Shown piece by piece: positions 5,725-46,333 of a DNA stretch of 64,000 nucleotides. Every line of letters starts with the position of its first letter. The first letter of the stretch is position 1. This DNA comes from an uncultured bacterium (lineage in GTDB: Bacteria > Patescibacteriota > Minisyncoccia > Phycocordibacterales > GWA1-40-21), in assembly GCA_963840885.1 (NCBI GenBank), contig CAWJAN010000001.1, positions 181,356 through 245,355 on the forward strand, given 5' to 3'. The notes under the pieces were generated by a model, which was not told the origin of the DNA, ran no database searches, and worked only from the letters and a program-made list of their open reading frames with translations. The position numbers and the translations under genes are program-made.

Positions 5725-6606
5725 TTACTGGTTATTTGAGGAAGTTGCGATGGCATCAAGCGCATCTTGTATATCGCTTGCAGGAGCAAAAAGATCATTT
5801 TGGGCACTGCTTAGATATGTGGTTTTTATTCCCACTAAATCGCCGGAAAGATCGAGAAGTATGGATCCGGGAACAAAATTTTGCGACACGGAAGTTTCTA
5901 TGTAGCTTAGCGCTGGGGCCGTCGAATCGGTGCTTGAAACCTGGCCGGCATCTTTAGTTCCAATAGATGAGACTATTCCTGTGGCAACAGTATTTTTTGA
6001 ACTTCCGCCTATATATACTACTGATTGGCCGAGCTTTACATCCTCGCTTGATAAATTTGCCTTAACAAAAGGAGTGGATGAGCTTGTATCCGGCTTAATT
6101 TTAAGCAGAGCGATCTGCTCGCCGGAAACGGAGCGCAATATGGAAATTTCGTGAAGCTGTCCGTCATCTGTCGGTGTAAAATATCTTCCACTATCCTTCG
6201 TTATTATATTCTCATCAGTTGCTATTATTCCGTCATCAGTAACTACGACTCCGAGGCCAACAAGATTCATGGAGCTTAAGCCGAGCGACGGATCGCTATT
6301 GGTCCTGTATAACCTGACCAGGCTTTTGGTATTCTTATCGACTGCGCTAACAACTGCGTCGTCGGAATTAACTATGACCGTCTCTTTCACTATTTGTTGT
6401 CCTGTATTTGAAGTTGATGTGGCCGGTTGAGATACTATTTTTTCTACAGTTGTCTGAACCACCCTGTTTATCGTTTGCGTCACGCCCACTGGAGCTTGAT
6501 TCATGAGAGCAACAGCGACTATTCCGGTAGCCATGGAAGTAACGAAGCTTACGAGAAGCGTAAGTAATACTATTTGGTGTCTAGTTAGGTTTTCCATATA
6601 TTTCAC
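5725..6606 (-). CDS. Membrane-anchored trypsin-like (HtrA/S1C-like) domain protein, predicted catalytically inactive
   Basis: N-terminal signal-anchor, then a segment alignable to the HtrA protease fold (GQSVVYIGG...TVATGIVSSI...PGSILLDLSGDLVGI versus HtrA GNSGGPLVN..GEVIGIN). The His motif (TNAHV) is replaced by TDENII and the Asp motif DIALL by QIALL. Confidence 0.45.
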   Translation of the reverse strand: MKYMENLTRHQIVLLTLLVSFVTSMATGIVAVALMNQAPVGVTQTINRVVQTTVEKIVSQPATSTSNTGQQIVKETVIVNSDDAVVSAVDKNTKSLVRLYRTNSDPSLGLSSMNLVGLGVVVTDDGIIATDENIITKDSGRYFTPTDDGQLHEISILRSVSGEQIALLKIKPDTSSSTPFVKANLSSEDVKLGQSVVYIGGSSKNTVATGIVSSIGTKDAGQVSSTDSTAPALSYIETSVSQNFVPGSILLDLSGDLVGIKTTYLSSAQNDLFAPASDIQDALDAIATSSNNQ

Positions 6607-11715: not shown

Positions 11716-14019
11716 TTAAGCTATTTCGCAAGTTCCCCCAACACAAGCCAATTCTTTCTTTACATCGGTCTCATCCCTTTTCTCGTACGTGATGATCTTT
11801 GAATAATCAATGTGCTCGAATTTCTTTATCATTTCCTTGTATCTCTTTTCATCTATCTCTTCATAAGGCGCAAGCTGGTATACGTGATTGTCGCGCGGCA
11901 AGAATGAAAGCCCGCCGAGAATATCCCAGTTTTCATAAAGCCAGTTTGCCACCTCTATCCATTCGCCGTCTCCGACAGAAACGGTAACGGAAGGATTGTG
12001 CTCGGTAAAATTCAATTTGACCATCTTCCAATGCTCAAGCTGCTGCAAAGCTGTCTGGTCATCTTTGAATATCGAGCCTTTCGGAGATTTGACCGGAAAT
12101 TCGAACACGAAAGTATTTGCTGTTTCTTTTGTCTGACCCACTTCAGGGAAATAAGGGACTCCCTGGTCGCGAAGCATTTTGAAAAGCGAATCTGTCGCGG
12201 AAATCCTGACTCTTCTTATATAATATGGCGCATATCTAGGATGCATTCCTGAAGAAAAGTTGAAAGTCTGGGAAGAATTTCCATCCGGCTTCACGCATGT
12301 AATCGCGGTTGAAGGAGTGACGCCGAATCTTTTGGCAAAAATTTTATTGGTTTTTATCGTTTCGTCCCTCATTTTCTGGAGCATTTTCGGAGTTCGCACC
12401 AGTTCGCAGTCCCATTGCCCTGCAAGACCCACGCCGAGCAATCTTTCCCTTTCGCAATTCTCTTTCCATTCCTTTGACAGATATGGGAAATTAGTAAGGG
12501 TAGACTGATAGGTGCCTATTATGGTGGCTATCCTTGTTTTTCTGAGTATTGAAGCTTCTGTATCGCCTTCCCTGGCTATTACATTCGTAAGGTTGCAGAA
12601 TTGCTTGGATTGCAGGATTATTTCACCGCAAGGATTAACGCCTATAAGCGGCTTATTGGTAAGCGCATGGCCGTCATATACGCCATCCTGCTTCCAGATT
12701 TTCAGCCTCCTTTCCGGAAGAGTATTCGGTATGCTACCCCTGTTGAATATTCCCCTTTCTCCTGTGCCGGATTTCATAAGGGCAATCCATTCGTCCATGA
12801 ATTCCTCTTCTGTCGGCTTTTGCATATAAACTGCAGAGTTGTTGGCTAGAGACCTTTGGCCTTCCGTAAGATAAAACTGGCCTTTTTTGGCATCGCGTAT
12901 CTTTTCATCCTCCAAATCAGAAAGAGAAATCATGGCGCTTCTTCTGACACCGCCGGAAACGACAATTTCTCCGATTTTGCACATGATGTCATGCGCGTCT
13001 ATATTTTCCAATCTCTTTCCCTGTCTTTTCAATATCTTGGCGCGCGCGAAATCCAAAAGATTTCTGAGAGGATCGGGTCCCGAAGATTTTCCTCCCATAG
13101 TTTTAAGCCTGGCTCCTGCCGGGCGGAGTTTTGAATAATCGAATTCTATGTCCATTCCATCTGCCCAAGTTTTGAGACCGAGAGTCAGAGAATCGCACCA
13201 GCCTTCTTTGCTGTCATCAACAATATGCGTAGGCAATTTTTTCCCGGTCTGTCTCTGGATTTGTGGTAAAGCCTGGATGTTCAAACTCTCAGCCGACCAT
13301 CCTACTCCTGTACCGCACATGCAGATGTACATTATCTCCGCAAAATCCTGCCACTTGTTCGGAGCAATGTAAGAGCAATTGTATGCACAGACATTTGTCC
13401 TGTCCGCTGCTGGTCCGGCAAATTGCAAAAGCCTCATCGAAGGCATTGCTTCCTGTTTCAGGATAGCTTCGCGGATTTCTTTGTATTCGGCATCTGTAAG
13501 TTTTTTTCCGAGATTTTTTTTCATGAAGGCCATGTATCTGTCCACGGTTTCAATCCAAGTTTCCCTCCTTTCCTCTTCCGGAATCCATTTTGAATATGTC
13601 CTGTAATAAACGAATTCGCCTAAAGGATTGCTGAAATATTTTTTGCTTTCTTCGGCAAGTTTTTTAAGATGAGGAGGAACAACCAAGCCTTGTGATCTTA
13701 TACTGTTTCTTTCCTGTCTGTATAATATGTATTCTTTCGATGATTTTACGTATTCTGAAAGTATGAGTTCCTTTTCCACTATATCCTGTATTCCTTCAAC
13801 GTCCGGCAAAAAATCCTTGAATTTCTTGGCTATTCTGACAAGTTCGGCTAAAACCTTATTCGCAACAAGCTCGGCTTCTTCAGTGGATCCCTCACCGCTT
13901 ACCGCCATCGCTTTGCTTATGGCATTTGTGATTTTTTGAAGATTAAAAGGGACTACCTGACCGTCTCTTTTCTTGATGCTCTTTATAAGGTGAGATCTGC
14001 CTGCTCCAGTTTTTACCAT
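11716..14019 (-). CDS. Ribonucleotide reductase catalytic subunit with N-terminal ATP-cone; class II (B12-dependent)-like or NrdA-like
   Basis: N-terminal ATP-cone (IKKRDGQVVPFNLQKITNAISKA). Active-site NPCGEIILQ...FCNLTNV (thiyl-radical Cys/Glu loop shared by class I/II reductases). C-terminal redox-shuttle cysteines CVGGTCEIA. No glycyl-radical RVCGY motif, so not class III. No small-subunit (nrdB) gene in the window, which favours a monomeric class II enzyme (inference). Confidence 0.85.
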   Translation of the reverse strand: MVKTGAGRSHLIKSIKKRDGQVVPFNLQKITNAISKAMAVSGEGSTEEAELVANKVLAELVRIAKKFKDFLPDVEGIQDIVEKELILSEYVKSSKEYILYRQERNSIRSQGLVVPPHLKKLAEESKKYFSNPLGEFVYYRTYSKWIPEEERRETWIETVDRYMAFMKKNLGKKLTDAEYKEIREAILKQEAMPSMRLLQFAGPAADRTNVCAYNCSYIAPNKWQDFAEIMYICMCGTGVGWSAESLNIQALPQIQRQTGKKLPTHIVDDSKEGWCDSLTLGLKTWADGMDIEFDYSKLRPAGARLKTMGGKSSGPDPLRNLLDFARAKILKRQGKRLENIDAHDIMCKIGEIVVSGGVRRSAMISLSDLEDEKIRDAKKGQFYLTEGQRSLANNSAVYMQKPTEEEFMDEWIALMKSGTGERGIFNRGSIPNTLPERRLKIWKQDGVYDGHALTNKPLIGVNPCGEIILQSKQFCNLTNVIAREGDTEASILRKTRIATIIGTYQSTLTNFPYLSKEWKENCERERLLGVGLAGQWDCELVRTPKMLQKMRDETIKTNKIFAKRFGVTPSTAITCVKPDGNSSQTFNFSSGMHPRYAPYYIRRVRISATDSLFKMLRDQGVPYFPEVGQTKETANTFVFEFPVKSPKGSIFKDDQTALQQLEHWKMVKLNFTEHNPSVTVSVGDGEWIEVANWLYENWDILGGLSFLPRDNHVYQLAPYEEIDEKRYKEMIKKFEHIDYSKIITYEKRDETDVKKELACVGGTCEIA

Positions 14020-30661: not shown

Positions 30662-30730
30662 TTTTATACAACCAGCTTAAAAATTAATTTAAACCTTGAA
30701 TTTATTGGGCTTTTCAAGTATCCTAGGACG

Positions 30731-30774
30731 TATTGCGGGATCGTCCCTGGCCGGGCAGGCTAATGGTAGGACAC
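30731..30774 (+). repeat. Duplicated 5' fragment of tRNA-Gln (acceptor 5' strand + D-arm) with a 14-nt insertion
   Basis: attGCGGGATCGTC[cctggccgggcagg]CTAATGGTAGGACACA matches tRNA-Gln 31016-31046 (attGCGGGATCGTCTAATGGTAGGACACA), apart from the bracketed insert. It diverges immediately after ACACA. Confidence 0.6.
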
Positions 30775-30775
30775 A

Positions 30776-31034
30776 AATGCAGTATTATTTATATATTTTA
30801 AAAAGTTTGAAAGATAGTAAGCACTACGTTGGCATTACTTCAAATTTAGAAGATAGATTAAAATATCATAATGCAGGCAAAGTTAAATCAACCAAAAGCA
30901 GAAGACCATTCATTATTCTATATATTGAAAAATATAGTAGTAGAATTGAAGCAAGAAAAAGAGAAGTGTATTTGAAAAGTTACAAAGGCAGCAAAGAAAA
31001 ATTGACCTTGATCGAAAATTGCGGGATCGTCTAA
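30776..31034 (+). CDS. GIY-YIG nuclease-family small protein (YhbQ/UPF0213-like)
   Basis: 86 aa from ATG 30776. YYLYILKSLKDSKHYVGITSNLEDRLKYHNAGK...SRRPFIILYIE...REVYLKSYKG is the GIY-YIG/URI fold. The last 5 codons and stop are encoded by the first 15 nt of tRNA-Gln. The ORF-track N-terminal extension back to 30696 would read through the tRNA fragment and is rejected. Confidence 0.68.
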
Positions 31035-31089
31035 TGGTAGGACACATCCCTCTGGAGGATGTTATCTTGGTTCGAGTCCAAGTCCCGCA
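31019..31089 (+). tRNA. tRNA-Gln(CTG)
   Basis: Acceptor UGCGGGA/UCCCGCA with U1-A72 and discriminator G73 (classical tRNA-Gln identity features). Anticodon arm CATCC-CTCTGGA-GGATG gives anticodon CTG. T-loop TTCGAGT. Confidence 0.8.
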
Positions 31090-31110
31090 GCAAAAATGAA
31101 CGCAGTGATT

Positions 31111-31250
31111 TTTTGCTGCGGGAAGAAGCTCTGGGAGAGCTTCTTCTTGGACTCGAAGCCCGATTGAGCATATTTTATGAGTAAAGCGAAATAAAATATC
31201 CAATCGGGATACTGAGTCTGTAAGACTCGAGTCCAAGTCCCGCAGCAAAT
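31111..31250 (+). repeat. tRNA-3'-end-mimicking palindromic element, copy 1 (next to tRNA-Gln)
   Basis: Outer arms tttgctgcggga / tcccgcagcaaa are the complement and a copy of the tRNA-Gln 3' terminus. The hairpin is gaagctctgggagagcttc. Inner arms cttggactcgaa / ctcgagtccaag are the complement and a copy of the tRNA-Gln T-arm. The conserved core is GCCCGATTGAG...CCAATCGGGATACTGAGTCTGTAAGACTCGAG. The same core and architecture occur at 44937-45080. Confidence 0.5.
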
Positions 31251-31344
31251 AATTTTTCCTATAGATCTATGTCGGTAAATAGTATTGTGCAACTAAATAA
31301 AAAGTCCCTCAGTAAATGAAGGACTTGTAATCTTAAAAATCTTT

Positions 31345-33502: not shown

Positions 33503-36500
33503 TTAATTGGCCATTATACTTGCACCAATTACGTTGCTAGGAGATGCGCCTGTACCAGTACATGTATTCAACATATCTAGCACATCTCCCGCAGAAGCTG
33601 ACACCGTATGCGTTGTATCATGACAAGCGCTCGCACCTGCTGCTATAGTGCATGTAAGTGCCGTGCTTGCTCCATTTAGCCTAAGAACATATACTTCTGA
33701 GTCATTTACCGGAACATTAGAACGAGTTACTACATAAAGTTTGCTCAAAGTTGTAGCCACAGGCAATGGCGTAGGAATAACGCTAGTTTCGGTGCTGCTA
33801 TCATCAGCCGCACCAAAGTAAGTGGCGAATCCTCCTCCCGAACAACTAATGCTGCCATAGTTCTGGGTATTGCCAAATCGAATCATAGAACCAATGCCGA
33901 CTGTATTTCCGGTTCCTCCGTTTGCAATAGGAAGGGTACCGGTAACAGCGCTTGCCGATGCTAGGTTCACTTGGCCAAACGCAAGCGCAGTGCCTCCAGT
34001 ATTAACTACCAAAACTTGATTGGCCGTGCCCTGTATAGAAGCATTGTCTGCTGTAGCGTTTCCTGTAACCCCAAGAACGGATCTCGCGGAACCCTGTGTA
34101 AGATTAGCAAACGGAAGACGTCCAGTTACTCCATTTGCAAGATTTATTTGCGCCCATGCCGGATTATTAGAAGTGCCCGTATTAGAAAGATAACTTGTTG
34201 CGGATGTATTTTTTGCTAATGCCGAAATTGTATTTGCCGCCGAACCGTAAAGGATATCGCCTTGCGATGCTGCATTCGGAAGCACGAGCGTTGACCATGC
34301 AGGCGCTGTTCCCGCTCCGCCGGAACGCAAGAATGAACCGGCCGTAACATCTATTAGTTTTGAAAGCGTTGTTGCAGCACTTGCATAAAGAATATCGCCG
34401 GTTGTATAAGTTGTTTGTCCTGTTCCTCCGTTTGCCGCTATCAAACTTCCGCCGGAAAGTGAAAGTGTTCCTGATGTTGTAATAGGTGTGCCGGTAAACG
34501 TAAGGCCGATAGTCGAAGATGCAGCAACGCTTGTAACTGTTCCTCCAGCAGAGCTAGAAGTAGAAATAACATTTCCATTTGCATCTACTCCGAGAAAAGA
34601 GTTCGCTAGATTTAAAATTTTTAAACCGTTTGTAGTTGTAGTGCCTGTTACAGAAAGAGCTGTATTCGGAGTGGATGTGCCTATTCCTACATTACCATTC
34701 AAAAGCTCGATATTTCCTGAATTATCAAGAAGGATTTTTTCATTGCTCGATGTAGATGTTCCGCCTTGGAATAATGCGACTGAAGTCGAAGACTGCCTTG
34801 ATGCGATTACAAATTGATTGGTGAAGAAAGTTGCGGATGGATTTCCATATTGGAAAGATGCCGATAGAGTGCCATTCGAATCATACATATTCATACCAGC
34901 ATACGAGGTGTTTAAAGTTGATTGATTCCTTATTGTCGCATCCCCGGAAGAAGCTATTGTGAGAGGAGCTGCGGTTATAGTGCTCGTACCAATACTGACA
35001 TTTCCTCCGGCTGCGTAATAAATATTATTTCCGGATGTCGTCCACTGGGATGAGGTAATACCGAGCGTTGAAGTTGACATCCATGCCAAGCCATCCGTTG
35101 CCGTGGAACTCGCCGCAAGAATCTGTCCATCTGAACCTATACCCAGACGGACATTGTTTGATCCGTCGCTTGAAATCAAGTCTCCTTTTGTTGTTATTGG
35201 AGAAAGGCTATTGAAAGCCGAAGTAGCCGTGGTTTGGCCCGTGCCGCCCTGGCTGATTCCGACCGTTCCCGTTGAAGTGAGATTTTTTGAACTGTCAGTG
35301 AAAATAGCTGCTGATGCGGCAAGACCTGGATAATTGGCGGTGCCGCTTATTGTTGTCGTTATACCTGATCTGCCTATGGAAACTGAAGTCGATGTTGATG
35401 CTCCGAGGTTTAATGCTCCCGCGGAATAAATATTGAGCGAACCTGCGCCGGTGGACCAAGTCGATGTCGCCCCGCCGGTGAGCGTCAATGCTCCCCCGGA
35501 AGTAAAACTGGAAGCTCCAGTAGGAGTTAACAACACTGATCCTGCACCTGAAGCGGTAAAATTTCCTGATGTAAGGGTCAAGGCAATATTTGTAGAAGCG
35601 GCTGTAGTGATTGACGAGCCTCCGTCATAAGCGCTTTGCAATGTCGGCGAAGATATCGATGACCATTTTATGCCGCTTGCTTGGGTTGAATCAACGGTTA
35701 AAACCTGTCCATTGGTTCCAGAAACCGGCAATCTTATATTATTTGTTCCATTATGAACTATGATATCGCCTTTTGTCGTAAGCGGAGACAATGCATTAAA
35801 TCCTGCTGTCTGTGTTGTCTGACCTGTGCCGCCATTTGTAATTCCCAAAGTTCCAGACAGAGTCAATGTTCCAGAATCCGTAATCGGGCTTCCGGAGAAT
35901 GAGAGTCCGGACAATGTCGTTGAAGCTGCAACGCTTGTCACTGTTCCTGAATTTCCATCTGCCCAGGCAAGGCCGGTTGAAGCACCTGAGCTTGCAATGA
36001 GAAATTGTCCGTTTGAACCGACACTGAGTTTCACATTATCTGAACCATCACTTGAAATTATGTCGCCTTTCGCAGTAATCGGAGACAAATTATTAAATGC
36101 GGTCGTGGTTGCCGCAGCTCCGGTTCCGCCATTTGCAACATTTAATGTTCCTGTAAGGACTAAAGTTCCTGAAGTTGAAACTGGTCCGCCAGTAAATGTA
36201 AATCCTGTAGTTCCCCCTGATGCATCAACACTCATTACAGTTCCGTTGTCTTCATCATCTCCCCAATCAAAGCCGGTCGGTGAAGTTGAAGAGGCACGTA
36301 AAAATAAGCCATCAGTACCGGTTGCAAGAGCTGTAATTGTATCCGGAGAGGACCAGTAAGCCAGAGTATTTGTTGCTCCGGATCCTGAATTAACTATAAA
36401 TGTTGAAGATGCATATGAGAAAGAAGGAAAGGCGGATGAAGCGTAAGTGAAAGACGGATATGTCGAGGTTGCATCTGCGATTGAGAGATATGTCGCTGCG

Positions 36501-38995
36501 GCGGAGGTTGTGGAAAGTTTTGCATCAAGCGTTGCTTGCAGATCTGCTTGGTCAGAAAGAAGGCCTGTGATGGATCCCCAGCTTACAGCAGCGGCAGATG
36601 TGGCCGACCAGTCGAAACCTGTCGGAGAAGTGGACGAGGCTCGCAAAAATTGTCCTGGAAGTCCGGTTGTGATGGTTCCGAGTCCATGCAAAGAAGACCA
36701 ATATGTAATCGTATTCGTGGCACCGGTTCCATTTGCAAAAGTGGACGATGCATATGGGAATGAAACATATGTCGCCGCGGCGGAAGTCGTGGAAAGATAG
36801 CCGCCGAGAGAAGATTGCGTCGCATATGTTGAAGAACCGTAATCGTAAGTGACGAAAGTGGATGATGCGTAAGTGAAAGACGGATATGTCGAGGTTGCAT
36901 CCGCGATTGAGAGATATGTCGCTGCGGCGGAGGTTGTGGAAAGTTTTGCATCAAGCGTTGCTTGCAGATCTGCTTGGTCAGAAAGAAGGCCTGTGATGGA
37001 TCCCCAATCAACGGTTGTTGTTGTGGTAGCCACCCAGTCAAAACCGCTTGCGGATGTTGAAGATGCGGTAAGGAAATATCCTGGCGTTCCGCTTGGAATA
37101 GTTCCCAGAGTTCCTGTCCCGCTCCAATAAGGAATGGTTTTTGCAACGCCATTCCCTGCTCCGGCTACAAAAGTCGATGAAGCGTTCGTGATAGTCAGAT
37201 ATGTCGCCGCGGCGGAAGTCGTGGAAAGATAGCCGCCGAGAGAAGATTGCGTCGCATATGTTGATGAACCGTAATCATAAGTTGCGAAGGCCGAAGAAGC
37301 ATAGGCGAAAGACGGATATGTAGACGTGGCGTCTGATATCGCAAGGTATGTGCTTGCGGCGGAAGTCGTGGAAAGATAGCCGTCAAGGCTTGTCGTCGAA
37401 ATATAGCCTGCCGGATTTGAAGAGAGATAATATGTCGATGATGCCTCATCTATAGACAGATAAGTCGATGATGCGTATGTAAACGAAACATATGTTGCTG
37501 CGGCGGAAGTCGTGGAAAGAAAACCTACCGAAGAAGTTGGCGAAGTCCATGACAAACTGCCGGAGCCGTCGGTAGTCAAAACATAACCGGCTGAACCGTC
37601 TGAATCCGGAAAGGTGTATGTTGTAGAGCTTGTAATCGAATTCGGAATAAATCCGACATAGCCAGAAGTGGAAGCCGAGAGCCTCAGTTCTCCTTTTACA
37701 TCAAGGGCTGATCCGGGAATTGTCGTGCCTATGCCGACATTGCCATCGCCATCGATTATCATGCGCTCATTTGTCGTATCGGCGCCGCCGGTGATAAATT
37801 TTATTGAGGAATCGCCGCCGGTTAAAGCTGAAGGGAAAAGCGTGCCGATTACAAGATCATTTCCTCCGCTCACTAAAAATCCGTTATCCGGGCCTCCAAG
37901 CGGAAACGTAGGATTGTTATATCCGGAAGATGTTATGCCCATTGTCATGGAATTTTGTTGCGGATAGGGACTGTCATGATTGTCGGCGCCCGCAGATAAG
38001 ACAGAAGCTGCTGCGTTGCCTGCATTCCTGTTGGTAACATTCAAAAACAAGTTGTCATTGATATCTCCGTTGCCGGTTATGGTTCCTGGGTTTCCTGGGT
38101 CAGCTTCGACTCTGAATTTTTCTGTTCCGAAAGAATCCGATCCTACGAGGACCTGGCCTGCATTATTTATTATAAAAGGCGTAGTATCATTTGGTTCATC
38201 GTCTACTTGGAAACTGTTTCCGTCGCCAAGATTTTTTACATATAATGGCATCGCCGTGGAACCTGCTTGGGTTCTTACCTCCACTATAGCCGGGTTTCCA
38301 GTCGCTGTTGACGGAGAGCTCTCGCCAAAAACCATTCCTGTCTGATCCGGACTTGCCAAAGACCAGTTCCATGCCTGAGGATTGTCTCCATTATCTATCG
38401 TATTGCCTGCGGTTGCCGCAAACAAAGAAGAAAGCGTTGTGGCTGGAGTTGAGGAACTGAGAAGTTCCAGCCAGTTTGAAAGAGTACTCGGCGGAGTAGC
38501 TGAAAGTATGTAAGATTTGTTTTCATCGGTCCTTATGGCGACATCTCCCACATCGGCTGAAAGCGCAAGCATAGATGCTTCATCGCTGACTACATAGGTA
38601 TGCGTAATGACAAGAGATGGCAATTGAGAAGCGAAAACTTGGCCGTTTCCATCAAGCGTAGCTACTCCGCCAGGAACACCTACCGGCAAATTGCTCATCG
38701 GCACGACTCCGGACGAATCGAGAGGAGCTATACCGTTTGCATCGCCTACTCCGAGCCCGGCATTCGATAAAGCATTGGTGACTGAAACCCAAATGGCATT
38801 CCCGGATGAATCTGAAGACAATATGAAATTATTATTCGCTCCGCTTTCGAATTTTAAAGCGCCGGAAACGGTAAGGCTTCCGCCTGTTGAAATATTCGTA
38901 CCTATTGTAGTAGCTGCAAAAACCAAAGCAGGAGCGATGGCCAATCCCATCGATAATGAAACTGAAAACAAAATTTTATATGTTTTTATTTTCAT
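33503..38995 (-). CDS. Giant (1830 aa) secreted repeat protein / putative adhesin with phage tail-fibre-like NGGTG motifs
   Basis: Signal peptide MKIKTYKILFSVSLSMGLAIAPALVFAA. G/S/T/A-rich beta-strand repeats. Five or more copies of (A/I/S)NGGTG(x)T...(F/A)N(N/A/S)L..(I/L)T.KGD. Roughly 142-aa near-identical tandem repeats (WGSITGLLSDQADLQATLDAKLSTTSAAATYLSIADATSTYPSFTYASS occurs twice verbatim). Higher local GC than its surroundings. The many internal + and - ORFs in the track are artefacts of the repeats. Confidence 0.8.
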   Translation of the reverse strand: MKIKTYKILFSVSLSMGLAIAPALVFAATTIGTNISTGGSLTVSGALKFESGANNNFILSSDSSGNAIWVSVTNALSNAGLGVGDANGIAPLDSSGVVPMSNLPVGVPGGVATLDGNGQVFASQLPSLVITHTYVVSDEASMLALSADVGDVAIRTDENKSYILSATPPSTLSNWLELLSSSTPATTLSSLFAATAGNTIDNGDNPQAWNWSLASPDQTGMVFGESSPSTATGNPAIVEVRTQAGSTAMPLYVKNLGDGNSFQVDDEPNDTTPFIINNAGQVLVGSDSFGTEKFRVEADPGNPGTITGNGDINDNLFLNVTNRNAGNAAASVLSAGADNHDSPYPQQNSMTMGITSSGYNNPTFPLGGPDNGFLVSGGNDLVIGTLFPSALTGGDSSIKFITGGADTTNERMIIDGDGNVGIGTTIPGSALDVKGELRLSASTSGYVGFIPNSITSSTTYTFPDSDGSAGYVLTTDGSGSLSWTSPTSSVGFLSTTSAAATYVSFTYASSTYLSIDEASSTYYLSSNPAGYISTTSLDGYLSTTSAASTYLAISDATSTYPSFAYASSAFATYDYGSSTYATQSSLGGYLSTTSAAATYLTITNASSTFVAGAGNGVAKTIPYWSGTGTLGTIPSGTPGYFLTASSTSASGFDWVATTTTTVDWGSITGLLSDQADLQATLDAKLSTTSAAATYLSIADATSTYPSFTYASSTFVTYDYGSSTYATQSSLGGYLSTTSAAATYVSFPYASSTFANGTGATNTITYWSSLHGLGTITTGLPGQFLRASSTSPTGFDWSATSAAAVSWGSITGLLSDQADLQATLDAKLSTTSAAATYLSIADATSTYPSFTYASSAFPSFSYASSTFIVNSGSGATNTLAYWSSPDTITALATGTDGLFLRASSTSPTGFDWGDDEDNGTVMSVDASGGTTGFTFTGGPVSTSGTLVLTGTLNVANGGTGAAATTTAFNNLSPITAKGDIISSDGSDNVKLSVGSNGQFLIASSGASTGLAWADGNSGTVTSVAASTTLSGLSFSGSPITDSGTLTLSGTLGITNGGTGQTTQTAGFNALSPLTTKGDIIVHNGTNNIRLPVSGTNGQVLTVDSTQASGIKWSSISSPTLQSAYDGGSSITTAASTNIALTLTSGNFTASGAGSVLLTPTGASSFTSGGALTLTGGATSTWSTGAGSLNIYSAGALNLGASTSTSVSIGRSGITTTISGTANYPGLAASAAIFTDSSKNLTSTGTVGISQGGTGQTTATSAFNSLSPITTKGDLISSDGSNNVRLGIGSDGQILAASSTATDGLAWMSTSTLGITSSQWTTSGNNIYYAAGGNVSIGTSTITAAPLTIASSGDATIRNQSTLNTSYAGMNMYDSNGTLSASFQYGNPSATFFTNQFVIASRQSSTSVALFQGGTSTSSNEKILLDNSGNIELLNGNVGIGTSTPNTALSVTGTTTTNGLKILNLANSFLGVDANGNVISTSSSAGGTVTSVAASSTIGLTFTGTPITTSGTLSLSGGSLIAANGGTGQTTYTTGDILYASAATTLSKLIDVTAGSFLRSGGAGTAPAWSTLVLPNAASQGDILYGSAANTISALAKNTSATSYLSNTGTSNNPAWAQINLANGVTGRLPFANLTQGSARSVLGVTGNATADNASIQGTANQVLVVNTGGTALAFGQVNLASASAVTGTLPIANGGTGNTVGIGSMIRFGNTQNYGSISCSGGGFATYFGAADDSSTETSVIPTPLPVATTLSKLYVVTRSNVPVNDSEVYVLRLNGASTALTCTIAAGASACHDTTHTVSASAGDVLDMLNTCTGTGASPSNVIGASIMAN
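36440..37300 (-). repeat. Near-identical ~426-bp tandem nucleotide repeats inside the giant surface-protein gene
   Basis: A stretch of roughly 130 nt beginning gaaagacggatatgtcgaggttgcatc... and ending ...gatggatcccca recurs at about 36441 and 36867, with a further degenerate copy after that. Period about 426 bp = 142 codons, in frame. Confidence 0.6.
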
Positions 38996-44251: not shown

Positions 44252-44794
44252 ATGTTTTGGAGCAGAATGGGTTTCAGGACTTTCATACTTTATTTGGTAA
44301 AAGGGATACTGCCCGGAATTTTTCTGATGATACTGTCTGTTTTTCTTCTTTTGATAAAAAGCTATCTCGTAAGCGGAGCTAATTCAGAAATAATACAGCT
44401 GGGAAATTCGTATCAGATAATAATAACCGTTGCAGGCATACTTATGATTGCAGCGTTTCCCATCATAGCTCTCGGAATAATAATAAATATGTGGCGCTAT
44501 TGGAGAATCCAATACAAGCTGGAAGATGATGTGCTCAGATTCAACCGAGGAATAATAAGCGTTAAAGAACTCTCCATACCGTATACAAAAATAGAAGACG
44601 TGGACCTTGATCAGAGCGTTCTCGGGAGAATTTTCGGAGTCGCAAGATTATCCATAATAACATCAGGACGCGAAGAAAAAGGAGCCACTAGCGAAACGGA
44701 AATGATTTTCAATATGATAGACATAGGTAAAGCCAGGGATCTCCAAAAAGAACTGATATCAAGAGGAAGTGTGCAAAAAGTCAAAGAAATTTAA
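44252..44794 (+). CDS. Bacterial PH-domain (bPH_2/DUF304, YdbS/YdbT-like) membrane protein
   Basis: Two N-terminal TM helices flank a short loop. Then RFNRGIISVKELSIPYTKIEDVDLDQSVLGRIFGVARLSIITSG, the characteristic bPH_2 signature. Confidence 0.7.
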   Translation: MFWSRMGFRTFILYLVKGILPGIFLMILSVFLLLIKSYLVSGANSEIIQLGNSYQIIITVAGILMIAAFPIIALGIIINMWRYWRIQYKLEDDVLRFNRGIISVKELSIPYTKIEDVDLDQSVLGRIFGVARLSIITSGREEKGATSETEMIFNMIDIGKARDLQKELISRGSVQKVKEI

Positions 44795-44818
44795 AACCGC
44801 CCAAAAGGCGGTTTTTTC
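44794..44818 (+). terminator. Rho-independent terminator
   Basis: aaaaccgcc-caaaa-ggcggtttttt immediately after the stop codon. Confidence 0.65.
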
Positions 44819-44821
44819 ATG

Positions 44822-44895
44822 CGCGGGTGACCGGACTCGAACCGGCGACCTCTCCCGTGACAGGGGAGCGTTCTAACCAACTGAACTACACCCGC
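44822..44895 (-). tRNA. tRNA-Asp(GTC)
   Basis: The reverse complement gives acceptor GCGGGTG/CACCCGC, anticodon arm CTCCC-CTGTCAC-GGGAG (anticodon GTC), and T-loop TTCGAGT. Confidence 0.85.
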
Positions 44896-44936
44896 AAACG
44901 TTTAAAAAGGATATCAGAAATTTTTATTTCTTCAAT

Positions 44937-45080
44937 TCCTTTTGTGTCGACGGGTGGATTCGAGTCTTACAGACTCAGTACCCCGATTGGATTTTTCCGT
45001 TCATTTTCATTCCGGAAAAATTCTCAATCGGGCTTCGAATCCACCACGAAACTGCCATCCGGCAGTTTCTCGTCTGCACA
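44937..45080 (-). repeat. tRNA-3'-end-mimicking palindromic element, copy 2 (next to tRNA-Met/CAT)
   Basis: On the minus strand: tgtgcagacga (imperfect complement of the tRNA-Met 3' end) - hairpin gaaactgccggatggcagtttc - gtggtggattcgaa (complement of the tRNA-Met T-arm) - GCCCGATTGAG - 33-nt spacer - CCAATCGGGGTACTGAGTCTGTAAGACTCGAA - tccacccgtcgacacaaaa (copy of the tRNA-Met 3' end). Same order and core as 31111-31250. Confidence 0.5.
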
Positions 45081-45111
45081 AATATAAAACAATAAATTGT
45101 CTTATATTTTG

Positions 45112-45185
45112 TGTCGACGGGTGGATTCGAACCACCGACCTTAGCTTTATGAGTGCTACGCTCTAACCACCTGAGCTACGCCGAC
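45112..45185 (-). tRNA. tRNA with CAT anticodon (Met elongator or Ile2-lysidine type)
   Basis: The reverse complement gives acceptor GTCGGCG/CGTCGAC (one G-U), D-arm GCTCAGGTGGTTAGAGC, anticodon loop CTCATAA (CAT), and T-arm GGTGG-TTCGAAT-CCACC. Confidence 0.78.
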
Positions 45186-45284
45186 ATTAAAAATTTCACC
45201 GAGTTAATATAGCATTTTTTACCGTGTTTTCAAATTAAATGCCGATTTCGTTTTGCCGAAATCGGCATTTAATTTTTCTATTGT

Positions 45285-45353
45285 TGCGGGGGCCCGAGTT
45301 GCACGGACATCTCAAGGTTATGAGCCTCGCGAATTACTGTTACTCTACCCCGC
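45285..45353 (-). tRNA. Atypical tRNA-like gene with CAT anticodon (short D-arm, T-loop TGCAACT); possible divergent tRNA or pseudogene
   Basis: The reverse complement gives acceptor GCGGGGT/CCCCCGC (6 bp plus one mismatch), anticodon arm CGAGG-CTCATAA-CCTTG (CAT), and T-arm GTCCG-TGCAACT-CGGGC lacking the usual TTC. Only 17 nt lie between the acceptor and anticodon stems. Confidence 0.4.
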
Positions 45354-45426
45354 TATTTAGGCTTAATATGCTACAGAAAAAATACCAAAAAGTCAATTTT
45401 TTGTATTAATAAACGGAGAAAAAATA

Positions 45427-46078: not shown

Positions 46079-46333
46079 TTACCCTGTTAAATAAGATTTG
46101 ATTCTTTTTCTAATAAATGACTTGCCATGATATGTTTTAAGATATTTTTCTCGATGCGTTGCGTCTTGTTGATTATGGCAAACTTCATAATATACAAGTT
46201 TAAACGGTTTTCTATCTTTTGTCGAATTAACGTTCCCTTTATTATGTTCATCAAATCTTAACTTTAAATTTTTAGTGAAACCTGTATAAAACTTCTTATC
46301 TTTTTGTGATTGCAGTACATATGTATAATACAT
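46079..46333 (-). CDS. GIY-YIG nuclease-family small protein (YhbQ/UPF0213-like), second copy
   Basis: MYYTYVLQSQKDKKFYTGFTKNLKLRFDEHNKG...STKDRKPFKLVYYE...REKYLKTYHGK is the GIY-YIG fold. It is a paralogue of the 30776-31034 product. Confidence 0.7.
   Translation of the reverse strand: MYYTYVLQSQKDKKFYTGFTKNLKLRFDEHNKGNVNSTKDRKPFKLVYYEVCHNQQDATHREKYLKTYHGKSFIRKRIKSYLTG

Follow-up and report, generated by a model that had tools for sequence, protein, structure and literature searches.

Why does the sequence between two neighbouring tRNA genes of a Patescibacteria genome end in a copy of the first of them, and what lies in front of that copy? The question is raised by a window of 64,000 nucleotides, the whole stretch of DNA analysed here, on the minus strand of which tRNA-Met(CAT) is followed by a 31-nt spacer, an element of about 143 nt (the Met element) and then tRNA-Asp. 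An earlier note had described the element as the second copy of a sequence that mimics a tRNA end. The reading that we prefer, with a probability of about 0.45, is that the Met element is a copy of a conserved, non-coding, transcribed structured RNA cassette that lies directly 3' of tRNA genes in Patescibacteria.

An insert between duplicated tRNA ends

The window contains the 20-mer TCGAATCCACCCGTCGACAC at just two places, 45111-45130 and 44944-44963, each on the minus strand; in 100 shuffles it was matched nowhere. The two copies, read from the sequence, stay identical across the trailer AAAA, so that the direct repeat comprises 24 nt (45130-45107 and 44963-44940); their flanks are unlike, ggt before and t after the one against gac before and g after the other. 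The terminus had been described as a copy of the T-loop and T-stem 3' strand, the acceptor 3' strand and the trailer of tRNA-Met, and this is borne out by the exact repeat. As the duplicated terminus stops at 44940, the end proposed for the element, 44937, overshoots by 3 nt into the flank. The AT-rich spacer of 31 nt is found as described (45111-45081), and so is the other copy, which lies on the plus strand behind tRNA-Gln(CTG) and repeats the 3' end of that tRNA in its last 23 nt (31227-31249, identical to 31072-31094).

In its genomic form the Met element is thus an insertion of about 165 nt between duplicated tRNA 3' thirds, which are 24 nt long and extend from T55 to 5 nt past the discriminator. 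We call these direct copies X, and the strands complementary to them X' (Table 1). The downstream X adjoins the ancestral flank, as is known from the empty sites of relatives: at 81-83% GatA identity the Met-Asp spacer measures 84-90 nt and the element is absent, and the window sequence downstream of the Met element aligns with this empty spacer.

Table 1. Features of the Met element, its sister copy and their surroundings (positions in the window)
Feature	Position	Strand	Description	Basis
tRNA-Met(CAT)	45112-45185	-	Host of the Met element	ARAGORN and Rfam (tRNA model, 65.5 bits)
tRNA-Asp(GTC)	44822-44895	-	Downstream gene, same probable transcription unit	ARAGORN and Rfam
Promoter-like site TTGAAA-16-TATATT	45233-45206	-	5' of tRNA-Met	
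Terminator-like site	44815-44793	-	Behind tRNA-Asp; only such site on the minus strand here	
Upstream X	45130-45107	-	Last third of tRNA-Met from T55 (45130) and 5 nt of trailer (to 45107)	
Spacer	45081-45106	-	AT-rich; apex of the long inverted repeat of tRNA 3' end and trailer with X'acc	Sequence, folds
X'acc, tttgtgcagacg	45071-45082	-	Complementary to acceptor 3' strand and trailer, cgtcgacacaaa	
Hairpin A, gaaactgcc-ggat-ggcagtttc	45048-45069	-		Fold
X'T, ggtggattcgaa	45034-45045	-	Exact reverse complement of tRNA positions 54-65 (whole T-loop and T-stem 3' strand)	
Hairpin B	44982-45032	-	Conserved base CCCGATTG-A-G ... C-CAATCGGG, bulged A, variable covarying upper stem, tip	
Junction GTACT, then hairpin C GAGTC-TGTAA-GACTC	44962-44981	-		Sequence, alignment
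Downstream X, tcgaatccacccgtcgacacaaaa	44940-44963	-	Supplies P3 3' strand (44961-44953) and acceptor-like 3' strand	
tRNA-Gln(CTG)	31020-31091	+	Host of the sister copy	
Sister copy ("copy 1")	about 31112-31249	+	Behind tRNA-Gln(CTG)	Covariance-model match, 108 bits
Sister X'acc	31112-31123	+		
Sister hairpin A	about 31124-31145	+		
Sister X'T	31146-31157	+		
Sister hairpin B	31159-31208	+		
Sister junction and hairpin C	31209-31228	+		
Sister X	31227-31249	+		

Beyond what the earlier note had seen, the 5' half of the Met element is the reverse complement of the tRNA-Met 3' third: its two 5' arms, X'acc and X'T, correspond to positions 54-73 of the neighbouring tRNA and the trailer. X'acc is paired at 8 of 10 positions in an ungapped register, and the first 9 nt of X'T pair with the downstream X to form helix P3. 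The spacer contains a weak hairpin (ataagacaa/ttgttttat); in folds and a motif scan, the same apex carries a GC-rich terminator-like hairpin or a GA/GNA mini-hairpin in many other members of the family described below.

The element had also been placed inside a probable Met-Asp transcription unit, and the signals around it agree. With a promoter-like site 5' of tRNA-Met and the sole terminator-like site 3' of tRNA-Asp, co-transcription of the Met element with both tRNAs is plausible from the sequence. Against its reading as an RNA cassette, many family members have a strong terminator-like hairpin and a T-run between the tRNA and X', so that read-through into the element would be limited.

No known class accounts for the element. 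ARAGORN and Rfam call the flanking tRNAs only, and for the tRNA model (RF00005), which would also pick up a tRNA pseudogene, 44937-45082 is empty to E 10; in the fold of the Met element the T-loop sequence is paired in P3, and the D-arm and anticodon arm are absent. ARAGORN finds no tmRNA in the window, nor does Rfam give a match to one. Rfam 15, searched with both copies at gathering thresholds and at permissive E-values, returns tRNAs and chance-level matches only, and 44780-45400 and 30700-31320 have no match to self-cleaving ribozymes or group I/II introns (E up to 10 / up to 1). Compared by eye, the hammerhead fails because the junction strands (GAAG 5' of hairpin B, RUACUG 3' of it) are wrongly ordered, and the hairpin ribozyme core fails in strand order or in sequence.

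A family behind many tRNAs

The Met element belongs to a Patescibacteria-wide family that sits behind many different tRNAs, which the earlier note had not recorded either. When 185,579 species, each represented by one genome, are scanned for the exact hairpin C 19-mer, 15 loci are found, all in Patescibacteria (7 Saccharibacteria, 3 Paceibacterota, 1 Parcubacteria, 1 Minisyncoccia and 3 "Patescibacteria group"), and a metagenome scan gives 13 further loci. In every readable case a tRNA gene lies on the same strand about 105-140 nt upstream, and the 3' end of the element copies that tRNA. About 35 copies were collected in all; they follow at least 15 tRNA species and share the strand of the tRNA without exception; the class II tRNAs Leu and Ser account for 16 of the 28 typed cases. 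Each member is built of acceptor- and T-complementary strands, hairpin A, a three-way junction with hairpins B and C, and a direct copy of the tRNA 3' third.

These features are captured in a covariance model, R1, which comprises P3 and hairpins B and C, with the loop C-UGUAA-G, the junction RUACUG and the hairpin B base CCYGATTG-A-G/C-CAATYGGG; the family definition also requires a location 3' of a tRNA and matched arms, and the Met element falls within it. R1 scores the Met element at 105.5 bits (E = 2.6e-29; 44941-45047, minus strand) and the sister copy at 108.1 bits, values that are partly by construction since both are in the seed alignment. Diverged copies outside the seed, behind other tRNAs, score 45-96 bits. 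R1 also finds more diverged copies behind other tRNAs within the same 8-kb loci, and in the window exactly two copies. Cassettes are borne by 2 of the 13 tRNA genes in the window and by 4 of the 21 other tRNA genes of the carrier loci. Thus, tiny as Patescibacteria genomes are, roughly one tRNA gene in five or six bears a cassette. A second, unrelated-looking core family has the same arm design (L007, L025); to it belongs the structured element behind tRNA-Asp in the close relative L007, which was considered as a homologue and is missed by R1.

The copies differ in number and in state of preservation. Two near-identical loci have one and two perfect tandem units, respectively (L017 and L029), some copies are decayed or truncated (L018a, L014a, L021), and hybrid copies occur (for example L027). 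The cassette would be gained and lost as a unit, recombination between the direct repeats giving rise to empty sites and tandem arrays. The core is near-identical between distant CPR (Patescibacteria) lineages and classes, which argues for horizontal spread. Taken together, gain and loss as a unit and the near-identical cores lead us to class the cassette with accessory or selfish RNA elements rather than with essential genes.

No protein is consistently associated with the elements. Clustering of the ORFs within 3 kb of about 30 copies reveals no recurrent partner and no mobility or recombinase-like protein; the neighbours that recur are syntenic housekeeping genes (rplS, a pseudouridine synthase, uppS, a recG-like gene), and Pfam likewise assigns the neighbouring genes to housekeeping. 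Small genes for GIY-YIG homologues lie upstream of some element-bearing tRNAs (tRNA-Gln of the window, L017), and others are found beside an unrelated tRNA (L019) or with no tRNA nearby (46079-46333 of the window). As most elements lack such a gene, the two are judged independent. GC skew over the 64 kb gives no usable signal for the direction of replication or for a lagging-strand-template bias. Full-text literature searches on tRNA-like, tRNA-linked or GIY-YIG elements of CPR turned up no description of the element; a folded non-coding element of about 140-145 nt directly 3' of tRNA genes in these bacteria is apparently undescribed so far.

A direct repeat of a tRNA 3' part around an insert (24 nt for Met, 23 nt for Gln) is what an integrative element would leave behind. 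One could therefore take the Met element for an inert scar: a prophage or genomic island would have integrated in the T-loop of the tRNA and then lost its interior, so that attL and attR were left joined. A tRNA 3'-end repeat around foreign sequence agrees with this and with the general principle (PMC9897764), and the decayed copies mentioned above fit as well. Such a scar is very improbable. A core of about 105 nt is shared by copies behind at least 15 tRNA species from several CPR classes; its three helices have each undergone compensatory changes, and its loops are invariant. Islands that decayed independently of one another could not have given rise to this, so that the idea is largely refuted. 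Furthermore, there is no long form and no viral, phage or plasmid match, and tRNA-specific reverse complements are foreign to att scars.

The layout of a conserved scaffold followed by a variable 3' segment of about 20-24 nt, identical to adjacent genomic sequence, recalls the omega-RNA of TnpB. The element might be a guide RNA, akin to the omega-RNAs of TnpB and IscB or the bridge RNA of IS110, that directs a mobile-element enzyme and has the 3' segment derived from the tRNA as its guide. We consider this extremely unlikely: no TnpB, IscB or IS110 gene is found in or near the elements, Rfam gives no match, the supposed guide X is paired in the predicted fold with the scaffold's own 5' arms (X'), and the intact target, the tRNA, adjoins.

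The fold and the tRNA-matched arms

Folding of the sense strand yields a three-way junction in which P3 meets hairpins B and C; against shuffled sequence the two copies in the window reach folding z-scores of -8.9 and -9.7. In an alignment of 34 distinct sequences 91.9% of the cells pair, and 24 of 32 pairs show changes on both sides; none of 500 shuffles equals this, and slid registers reach at most 51% paired. Both-side changes occur at 15 of the 18 pairs of hairpin B. The stem of hairpin C covaries in diverged copies (GAACC/GGTTC, GAAAC/GTTTC, GAAGC/GCTTC), and its loop C-UGUAA-G is invariant in every aligned copy. Hairpin A is specific to the family, with a base of the type GAGAAAG...CTTTCG in Paceibacteria and a top that varies with its pairing kept; it is missing from one copy (L019).

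In 16 of 17 copies the sense strand folds more stably than the antisense strand (mean difference -6.7 kcal/mol), and one position of hairpin B has G-U, a pair that favours the sense strand, as its commonest pair. Such strand-specific folding is no proof of RNA, since G-T wobbles, GNA triloops and tandem G-A pairs are stable in single-stranded DNA too. Single-stranded DNA might be the functional form, the element being a miniature non-autonomous integrative element, the X':X duplex of which would serve a recombinase acting in trans as a hairpin attachment site. The folded sense strand would rebuild a duplex copy of the tRNA from the T-loop to the 3' end, in the manner of the CTX-phage attP and the integron attC, and the order X, X', X fits such a site after integration. 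The apex loops are often C-GNA-G triloops with tandem G-A pairs (motif scan; for example GAGCGAAGCGA and GAACGCAGTGA), which form extraordinarily stable mini-hairpins in DNA. The direct repeat, too, spans the T-loop to a few nucleotides past the tRNA end, which is said to be the classic identity block of T-loop-targeting integrases; the sublocation classes of tRNA genes, the T-loop among them, reportedly go back to Williams in 2002. Tandem arrays and empty sites are seen, many tRNAs are occupied, and the cores are near-identical across phyla. That an insert is flanked by one complete and one partial tRNA gene is a general principle (PMC9897764).

We nevertheless find it quite unlikely that DNA is the functional form. 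No integrase gene accompanies the repeat: the insert of about 143 nt is without a credible ORF, and among the genes within 3 kb of about 30 copies no recombinase, HUH or transposase gene is recurrent. None of the about 35 copies is a cargo-bearing version. The core is missing from 2.9 million viral contigs, searched with the hairpin C 17-mer, a hairpin B/junction pattern and a variant hairpin C; two contigs that match the 17-mer do so by chance, as all flanking features are missing. The element has no BLAST match among GenBank phages or PLSDB plasmids, and there is no true attP-type match in the viral contigs, phages or plasmids. A covarying three-way junction with invariant loops would be superfluous for an attachment site, and the re-matching of the arms to new tRNAs would be left unexplained. 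The element is no MITE either: MITEs have element-specific terminal inverted repeats, a target duplication of 2-10 bp and dispersed insertion sites, whereas here the inverted arms repeat the local target and change from tRNA to tRNA, 23-26 nt are duplicated, and all copies lie directly 3' of a tRNA.

On the reading of the Met element as a transcribed RNA cassette, transcription would start with tRNA-Met at the promoter-like site and run on into tRNA-Asp. The cassette brings a second X, so that X' would have a spare X to pair with and the tRNA would be free to adopt its cloverleaf. This pairing would produce an extended coaxial helix of acceptor/T type, capped by the conserved junction, which could be freed by RNase P and RNase Z. 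The helix would display the invariant C-UGUAA-G loop, the bulged-A site of hairpin B and the GA/GNA mini-hairpins to a trans-acting factor or for a tertiary contact.

Drift in the family bears on this scheme. The terminal tRNA-like segment, X, is the least constrained part and has drifted or been replaced in several members; in at least seven copies this concerns the acceptor part of the downstream X, and X' there still matches the real tRNA. A cis helix X':X therefore fits poorly as the functional unit. The terminal copy behind the mimicry of a tRNA end that the earlier note had proposed is confirmed, yet the mimicry may not be a function: it may follow, as a by-product, from the cassette's position in, or entry into, the tRNA gene.

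The same drift suggests that the arms might be guides, X'acc, X'T and the 5' strand of hairpin C pairing in cis or in trans with the 3' third of the cognate pre-tRNA (positions 52-76). The junction and hairpins would then attract, or themselves provide, an activity for the processing, modification, checking or sequestration of the tRNA, and the downstream X would be an internal competitor or a placeholder. In seven copies with a diverged X, X'T is complementary to the real tRNA at 10-12 of 12 positions (L014a, L033b, L008, L018b, L023, L016b, L021), and in four copies X'acc is so at 10 of 10, compared with 4-7 of 10 for their own X (L027, L018b, L023, L016b). GAA of the junction completes the pairing with T54-T55-C56 of the real tRNA, not with CTC of the main-type own X, and the inverted repeat with the real tRNA reaches through the non-functional trailer, in L016b over about 29 bp without a mismatch. 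The minimum free energy (MFE) fold of the whole transcript also pairs X' with the tRNA's own 3' third. Two or three guide arms parted by a conserved hairpin recall H/ACA pockets and hammerhead-type designs of arm, core and arm. However, the same pattern is expected if the real tRNA 3' third came with the cassette and co-evolved with X', the downstream X being displaced junk. Pairing of X' with the tRNA would unfold an essential tRNA, no recurrent protein gene lies near the elements, and we know of no RNA-guided system of tRNA modification or processing in bacteria. Guidance by the arms is in our view rather unlikely.

The whole-transcript fold can be taken in yet another way. For both Met and Gln, its full form is a cloverleaf made with the downstream X and a structured T-loop insertion of about 155 nt, as if the true tRNA consisted of the upstream 5' two-thirds and the downstream X, and everything between them, including the upstream X sequestered by X', were removed like an intron. 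Introns do exist in CPR tRNAs, and the tRNA before one element (L035) has a group I intron (RF00028, 51 bits). Yet the upstream tRNA is always complete and of normal score, the acceptor strand of the downstream X is lost in several copies (L016b, L018b, L014a, L021), Rfam gives no intron or ribozyme family match, and no splicing machinery for such a T-loop site in bacteria is known to us. An intron thus seems highly improbable.

Returning to the RNA cassette, we know of no mechanism for three tRNA-specific segments between two conserved modules, which counts against it; we have also devised no scheme of recombination, transposition or templating that would give X'acc, A, X'T, B, C and X matched to each new tRNA. 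It is conceivable, although doubtful, that the cassettes are a new class of tRNA-specific "programmable" RNA elements, with a conserved structured core and arms that the 3' third of one tRNA has templated, or that selection has fitted to it. The arms would act as guides on the cognate pre-tRNA (in processing, modification, protection or sequestration) or direct insertion into that tRNA gene by an undescribed mechanism. The existence of a second core family whose arms are designed alike suggests that the principle is general in Patescibacteria rather than confined to a single case.

If the elements act as RNA, they form a new, widespread structured RNA family in which three tRNA-specific segments are interleaved with conserved modules. 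This would point to bacterial tRNAs being subject to an RNA-guided activity or to a protein-less element that homes to tRNA genes in a new way, and either would be new biology. If they are recombination scars with a structural bias, they are of minor interest. In any case, the tRNA-fragment duplications can confuse tRNA annotation and genomic-island prediction in CPR, and R1 offers a handle for a full census.

Comparison with known systems

Elements that integrate in tRNA genes resemble the cassettes in having an intact tRNA and a partial copy (from the T-loop to a few nucleotides past the tRNA) with foreign DNA between them, relatives with empty sites, and possible tandem arrays. In contrast to them, the insert here is about 140 nt and not kilobases long, encodes no integrase or other protein, contains reverse-complement tRNA copies and a covarying strand-specific structure, and occurs at many tRNA species. 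The CTX-phage attP hairpin and the integron attC share with the element an inverted repeat that rebuilds the target as a hairpin and a strand-specific fold, as well as the order of target copy, inverted copy and target copy once integrated. Unlike them, the element has no associated recombinase, has a conserved three-way junction with invariant loops, and targets a tRNA gene in place of dif or attI.

At the tyrT locus of Escherichia coli, 178-bp tandem repeats end in the 3' terminus of tRNA-Tyr; they are co-transcribed and processed by the tRNA-end enzymes, and rtT RNA (RF00391) is processed from them. There, too, units 3' of a tRNA gene end in a copy of the tRNA 3' end and vary in tandem number. 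The likeness is organisational only: RF00391 is missing from the Rfam E-value lists, there is no sequence similarity, and tyrT is a single-locus peculiarity of one tRNA, whereas the family combines a conserved three-way junction with complementary arms that match the respective tRNA.

RNase P and RNase Z also free tRNA-like RNAs such as mascRNA, viral tRNA-like structures and the bacterial YrlA. As modelled, the element would share with these an acceptor-type helix stacked on a second helix and a tRNA-like 3' end beside tRNA-processing signals. It differs from them in having no T-loop, D-arm or anticodon arm, the T-loop sequence being buried in a helix, and in that the acceptor-like part is the least conserved.

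The last comparison is with systems of guide arms. To our knowledge, none of the H/ACA, box C/D or exon-binding kind acts on tRNAs in bacteria. The core motifs of H/ACA and box C/D RNAs and of the hammerhead are absent (Rfam), and the element, unlike these, carries its own copy of the "substrate". In archaea, the box C/D intron of pre-tRNA-Trp guides methylation of its own tRNA, and tRNA introns pair with exons. The element resembles such introns, the H/ACA and box C/D guides and the arms of the hammerhead in that tRNA-specific arms surround conserved modules and are encoded beside or within the tRNA they match.

Site and anatomy of the Met copy

As the earlier note described, an element lies on the minus strand behind tRNA-Met(CAT) and a 31-nt AT spacer and ahead of tRNA-Asp, and this order is borne out by ARAGORN, Rfam and the sequence. 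Its terminus, tcgaatccacccgtcgacacaaaa, is indeed a copy of the tRNA-Met 3' end including the trailer caaaa: it repeats exactly 24 nt, from T55 through the discriminator and the trailer. The coordinates assigned to the element hold except at its end, which is 44940 rather than 44937. The 20-mer core of the repeat is present twice in the window, and 100 shuffles gave no occurrence. The sister copy, copy 1 of the earlier note, exists as well; it lies 3' of tRNA-Gln(CTG) and ends in a duplicate of that tRNA's 3' end. Here X denotes the direct copy of the host tRNA 3' third, and X'acc and X'T (together X') the element strands complementary to it; L numbers are comparison loci from other genomes or metagenomes, with a or b for separate copies at one locus.

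Positions of the tRNA genes and element parts (window positions unless a locus is named)
Feature	Positions	Strand	Remark
tRNA-Met(CAT)	45185-45112	minus	ARAGORN, Rfam
AT-rich spacer, 31 nt		minus	between tRNA-Met(CAT) and structured stretch; sequence
Met copy X'acc	45082-45071	minus	complementary to acceptor 3' strand and trailer
Met copy hairpin A	45069-45048	minus	
Met copy X'T	45045-45034	minus	exact reverse complement of tRNA positions 54-65 (whole T-loop and T-stem 3' strand)
Met copy single G		minus	between X'T and hairpin B
Met copy hairpin B	45032-44982	minus	
Met copy junction GTACT		minus	between hairpins B and C
Met copy hairpin C, GAGTC-TGTAA-GACTC	44976-44962	minus	then X
Met copy X, 24 nt	44963-44940	minus	duplicate of 45130-45107
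tRNA-Asp(GTC)	44895-44822	minus	ARAGORN, Rfam; 3' of structured stretch
tRNA-Gln(CTG)	31020-31091	plus	host of Gln copy
Gln copy mini-hairpin	31098-31108		a few nt past tRNA discriminator (spacer apex)
Gln copy X, 23 nt	31227-31249	plus	duplicate of tRNA-Gln 3' end
Second-family copy, L007	12857-13050		3' of tRNA-Asp; close relative of window organism
Second-family copies, L025	1480-1310 and ~9390-9130	minus	hosts tRNA-Ser(TGA) and tRNA-Val(TAC)

The Met and Gln copies share one fold, with z-scores of -8.9 and -9.7, respectively, against shuffled sequence. Helix P3, the pairing of X'T with X, closes the three-way junction whose other two arms are hairpins B and C, and X'acc pairs with the remainder of X in an acceptor-like stem. 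The tRNA-derived parts of the two copies are wholly different, with complementarity kept in each, and the copies are identical over the blocks TCGAAGCCCGATTGAG and CCAATCGGGrTACTGAGTCTGTAAGACTCGA. At each host tRNA, three tRNA-specific segments (X'acc, X'T and X) are interleaved with conserved modules. A mini-hairpin, GA-R-Y-G-N-A-R-Y-GA (e.g. GAGCGAAGCGA and GAACGCAGTGA), recurs in many copies, capping the spacer apex and/or hairpin B; its triloop is C-GNA-G, its R:Y pair covaries, tandem G-A pairs stand on both sides, and about 15 of its 25 matches in 316 kb fall inside elements. Rfam 15 gives no match to the element even at E-values up to 10, and ARAGORN finds no tRNA or tmRNA within it.

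The window holds a second tRNA-Met(CAT) (45283-45354, minus strand; Rfam only 42.7 bits), initiator-like in view of its A1/A72 mismatch and unusual T-arm.

Covariation and the partner of the complementary strands

Covariation was assessed in 34 distinct sequences aligned to R1, a covariance model of the element core (helix P3 and the junction with hairpins B and C). Standard pairs make up 91.9% of the cells, and 24 of the 32 pairs show two-sided changes; none of 500 shuffles attains any of the measures, and with slid partners at most 51% is paired. The hairpin C stem is constant in exact-match copies and covaries in the diverged ones (GAACC/GGTTC, GAAAC/GTTTC, GAAGC/GCTTC, GACCC/GGGTT), and its loop C-UGUAA-G is invariant throughout, diverged copies included. 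In diverged copies the 3' strand of hairpin C, GGTTC, equals tRNA positions 52-56, and X then spans 52-76. Judged by these sequences, selection acts on the structure of the sense strand, and the covariation contradicts the reading of the element as an inert att scar, which is very improbable. At one hairpin B position G-U is the most frequent pair, and the sense-strand fold beats the antisense fold in 16 of 17 copies; therefore, it is the tRNA-sense strand that folds, either in the form of RNA or, possibly, of single-stranded DNA.

X' has two possible partners, the spare downstream X or the 3' third of the real tRNA, with which it makes a long inverted repeat with the spacer at its apex. In seven copies whose own X has diverged, X'T is still complementary to the real tRNA at 10-12 of 12 positions; X'acc matches the real tRNA at 10 of 10 in L027, L018b, L023 and L016b, against 4-7 of 10 for their own X. 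Two readings fit. The 3' third of the real tRNA may belong to the cassette and co-evolve with X', the downstream X being the displaced original end, now decaying, which follows the logic of integrative elements (PMC9897764). Alternatively, X' may be a guide or clamp on the real tRNA; as an account of the element, such a tRNA-directed function is doubtful.

In the minimum-free-energy fold of the whole tRNA and element transcript, the tRNA's own 3' third is paired with X' and the downstream X completes the cloverleaf, resulting in a tRNA with a ~155-nt T-loop insertion. This fold is isoenergetic with that of a tRNA plus a separate element. It would suit a T-loop intron, but the upstream tRNAs are intact and the downstream X is decayed, which makes this reading highly improbable.

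Distribution, gain and loss

The 19-mer TACTGAGTCTGTAAGACTC occurs at 15 loci in a scan of one genome per GTDB species, all in Patescibacteria (CPR), with lineages including Saccharibacteria, Paceibacterota, Parcubacteria and Minisyncoccia; a metagenome scan added 13 loci. By its GatA protein, the window itself belongs to Paceibacterota. Every readable locus has a same-strand tRNA gene, the same architecture, the motif, and then the 3' end of the tRNA in duplicate. In the window R1 detects two copies and no others; elsewhere it detects more diverged copies behind other tRNAs within the same 8-kb loci (L017, Ile and Ser; L014, His and Leu; L016, Leu and Ile; L018, Leu and Arg; L033, Leu and His). 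The hosts are tRNAs for Leu (CAA, CAG, GAG, TAG), Ser (GCT, GGA, ACT), Val (TAC, GAC), His, Ile (TAT, GAT), Arg (GCG, TCT), Glu, Gln and Met/CAT, and one tRNA split by a group I intron. Leu and Ser, with 16 of the 28 typed and phylogenetically non-independent hosts, look over-represented.

The group I intron (L035 4881-5195, plus strand; Rfam RF00028, 51.2 bits) lies inside the tRNA preceding the element copy, and because of this interruption ARAGORN misses that tRNA. In several loci (L017, L021, L029, L034) tRNA-Ser(ACT) stands head-to-head with tRNA-Ser(GCT).

A screen of all 80 tRNAs of the examined loci, for inverted and direct copies of their 3' ends, found a second core, which differs from the first, shares its arm design and is not detected by R1. 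Its copies share the motifs AGCCGGAGC...GCGAGGC, AGGGTCGTG and, immediately 5' of the X copy, GTCGAGGGAG; the L007 copy has a fold z-score of -10.5. The L025 spacer carries the mini-hairpin GAACGCAGTGA, the same as in the window Gln copy. The second core and the common mini-hairpin therefore indicate that the tRNA-matched design is general in Patescibacteria.

In its gain and loss the element acts like a cassette. Three relatives (GatA 81-83% identical) were compared at the Met-Asp site. In L003 and L005 the tRNA-Met/tRNA-Asp gap is just 84-90 nt and the element is absent; the L007 interval, ~240 nt, contains tandem tRNA-Asp 5'-like fragments and no R1 element. The L003 and L005 spacers align to the window sequence 3' of the element's X; therefore, the downstream X runs straight into the ancestral flank, and 5 nt of ancestral trailer form part of the direct repeat. 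In L005 tRNA-Gln is bare. The near-identical contigs L017 (7285-7135) and L029 (4441-4739) carry one and two perfect tandem units, respectively, with a 148-nt period, a copy-number polymorphism 3' of tRNA-Ile(TAT). Tandem or partial second units are also present in L025, L034, L027 and L016, and truncated copies exist (e.g. L018a). The L027 copy is a hybrid, in which X'acc fits the adjacent tRNA-Val and a Leu-type tRNA is the source of X'T and X. One hairpin B tip subtype is common to the Gln (window), Val (L012) and Ile (L017) copies. Hairpin A type tracks the lineage of the host rather than the tRNA; within lineages, therefore, the core has passed from one tRNA species to another. The occurrence of near-identical cores in different CPR classes speaks for horizontal spread.

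No mobility-suggestive protein family recurs near element copies, and neither a cargo-bearing form nor a phage, plasmid or viral-contig match was found. It is unlikely that the element belongs to a miniature integrative element and serves it, folded as single-stranded DNA, as a hairpin attachment site. The least credible candidate is a guide RNA of the OMEGA or bridge type, there being no effector gene.

Other tRNA fragments and nuclease genes were observed. The window stretch 30734-31034 (plus strand) opens, just 5' of the real tRNA-Gln, with a tRNA-Gln 5' fragment matching tRNA positions 1-27, composed of tgcgggatcgtc, a 14-nt insert cctggccgggcagg and ctaatggtaggacaca. Directly 3' of the fragment lies a GIY-YIG ORF (30777-31034, plus; 85 aa; Pfam PF01541, E = 2e-16) with its stop codon within the D-loop of the real tRNA-Gln; thus, the 5' part of the tRNA stands as a direct repeat on either side of the nuclease gene, a mirror image of the element's 3' duplication. 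A second small GIY-YIG ORF (46079-46333, minus; 84 aa, 48% identical to the first) forms an insertion between gatA and the following ORF, where the corresponding gap is only ~40-90 nt in the three relatives. Homologous ORFs occur immediately upstream of tRNAs in L017 and L019. At L033 4548-6018, an NYN-domain nuclease (PF01936) and a 2'-5' RNA ligase/2H phosphoesterase (PF13563), both acting on RNA ends, are flanked on one side by a complete element 3' of tRNA-His (4372-4476) and on the other by a ~58-nt repeat of its right end and flank (about 5960-6018); in this single case the pair could be cargo or a separate insertion. Just 5' of real tRNAs, L005 has one Met-like tRNA 5'-end fragment (12343-12378) and L007 two tandem ~69-nt units with a tRNA-Asp-like start (12590-12740). 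An 1830-aa ORF of the window (33503-38995, minus), probably a repeat-domain surface protein, contains diverged tandem repeats (36297-37542) with 63-85% identity between units, which measure ~144-147 nt and ~426-432 nt.

Proposed role and comparison with known systems

The best explanation, to which we give a probability of about 0.45, is that the element is a structured RNA cassette which is attached to tRNA genes and transcribed. Transcription would run from the putative tRNA-Met promoter (45233-45206) to a terminator-like site past tRNA-Asp. The spare X would let the element fold independently, and RNase P and RNase Z might then release it, with the conserved loops offered to a partner. The direct repeats would provide for gain and loss of the cassette.

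The element resembles several known systems in part. Integrative elements that target tRNA genes leave a similar direct repeat; the tyrT/rtT repeats of E. coli are tandem units ending in a tRNA 3' end, as in the element arrays; guide RNAs and ribozymes have a like arm/core/arm layout; and folded single-strand attachment sites show the same X...X'...X order. By their defining tests, the element is none of these. Rfam and a full-text search, mainly of openly accessible literature, returned no description of it, and it is rated as outside the known kinds. Should it prove to act as an attachment module at the DNA level, its proper place would be among the tRNA-targeting integrative elements, as a variant.
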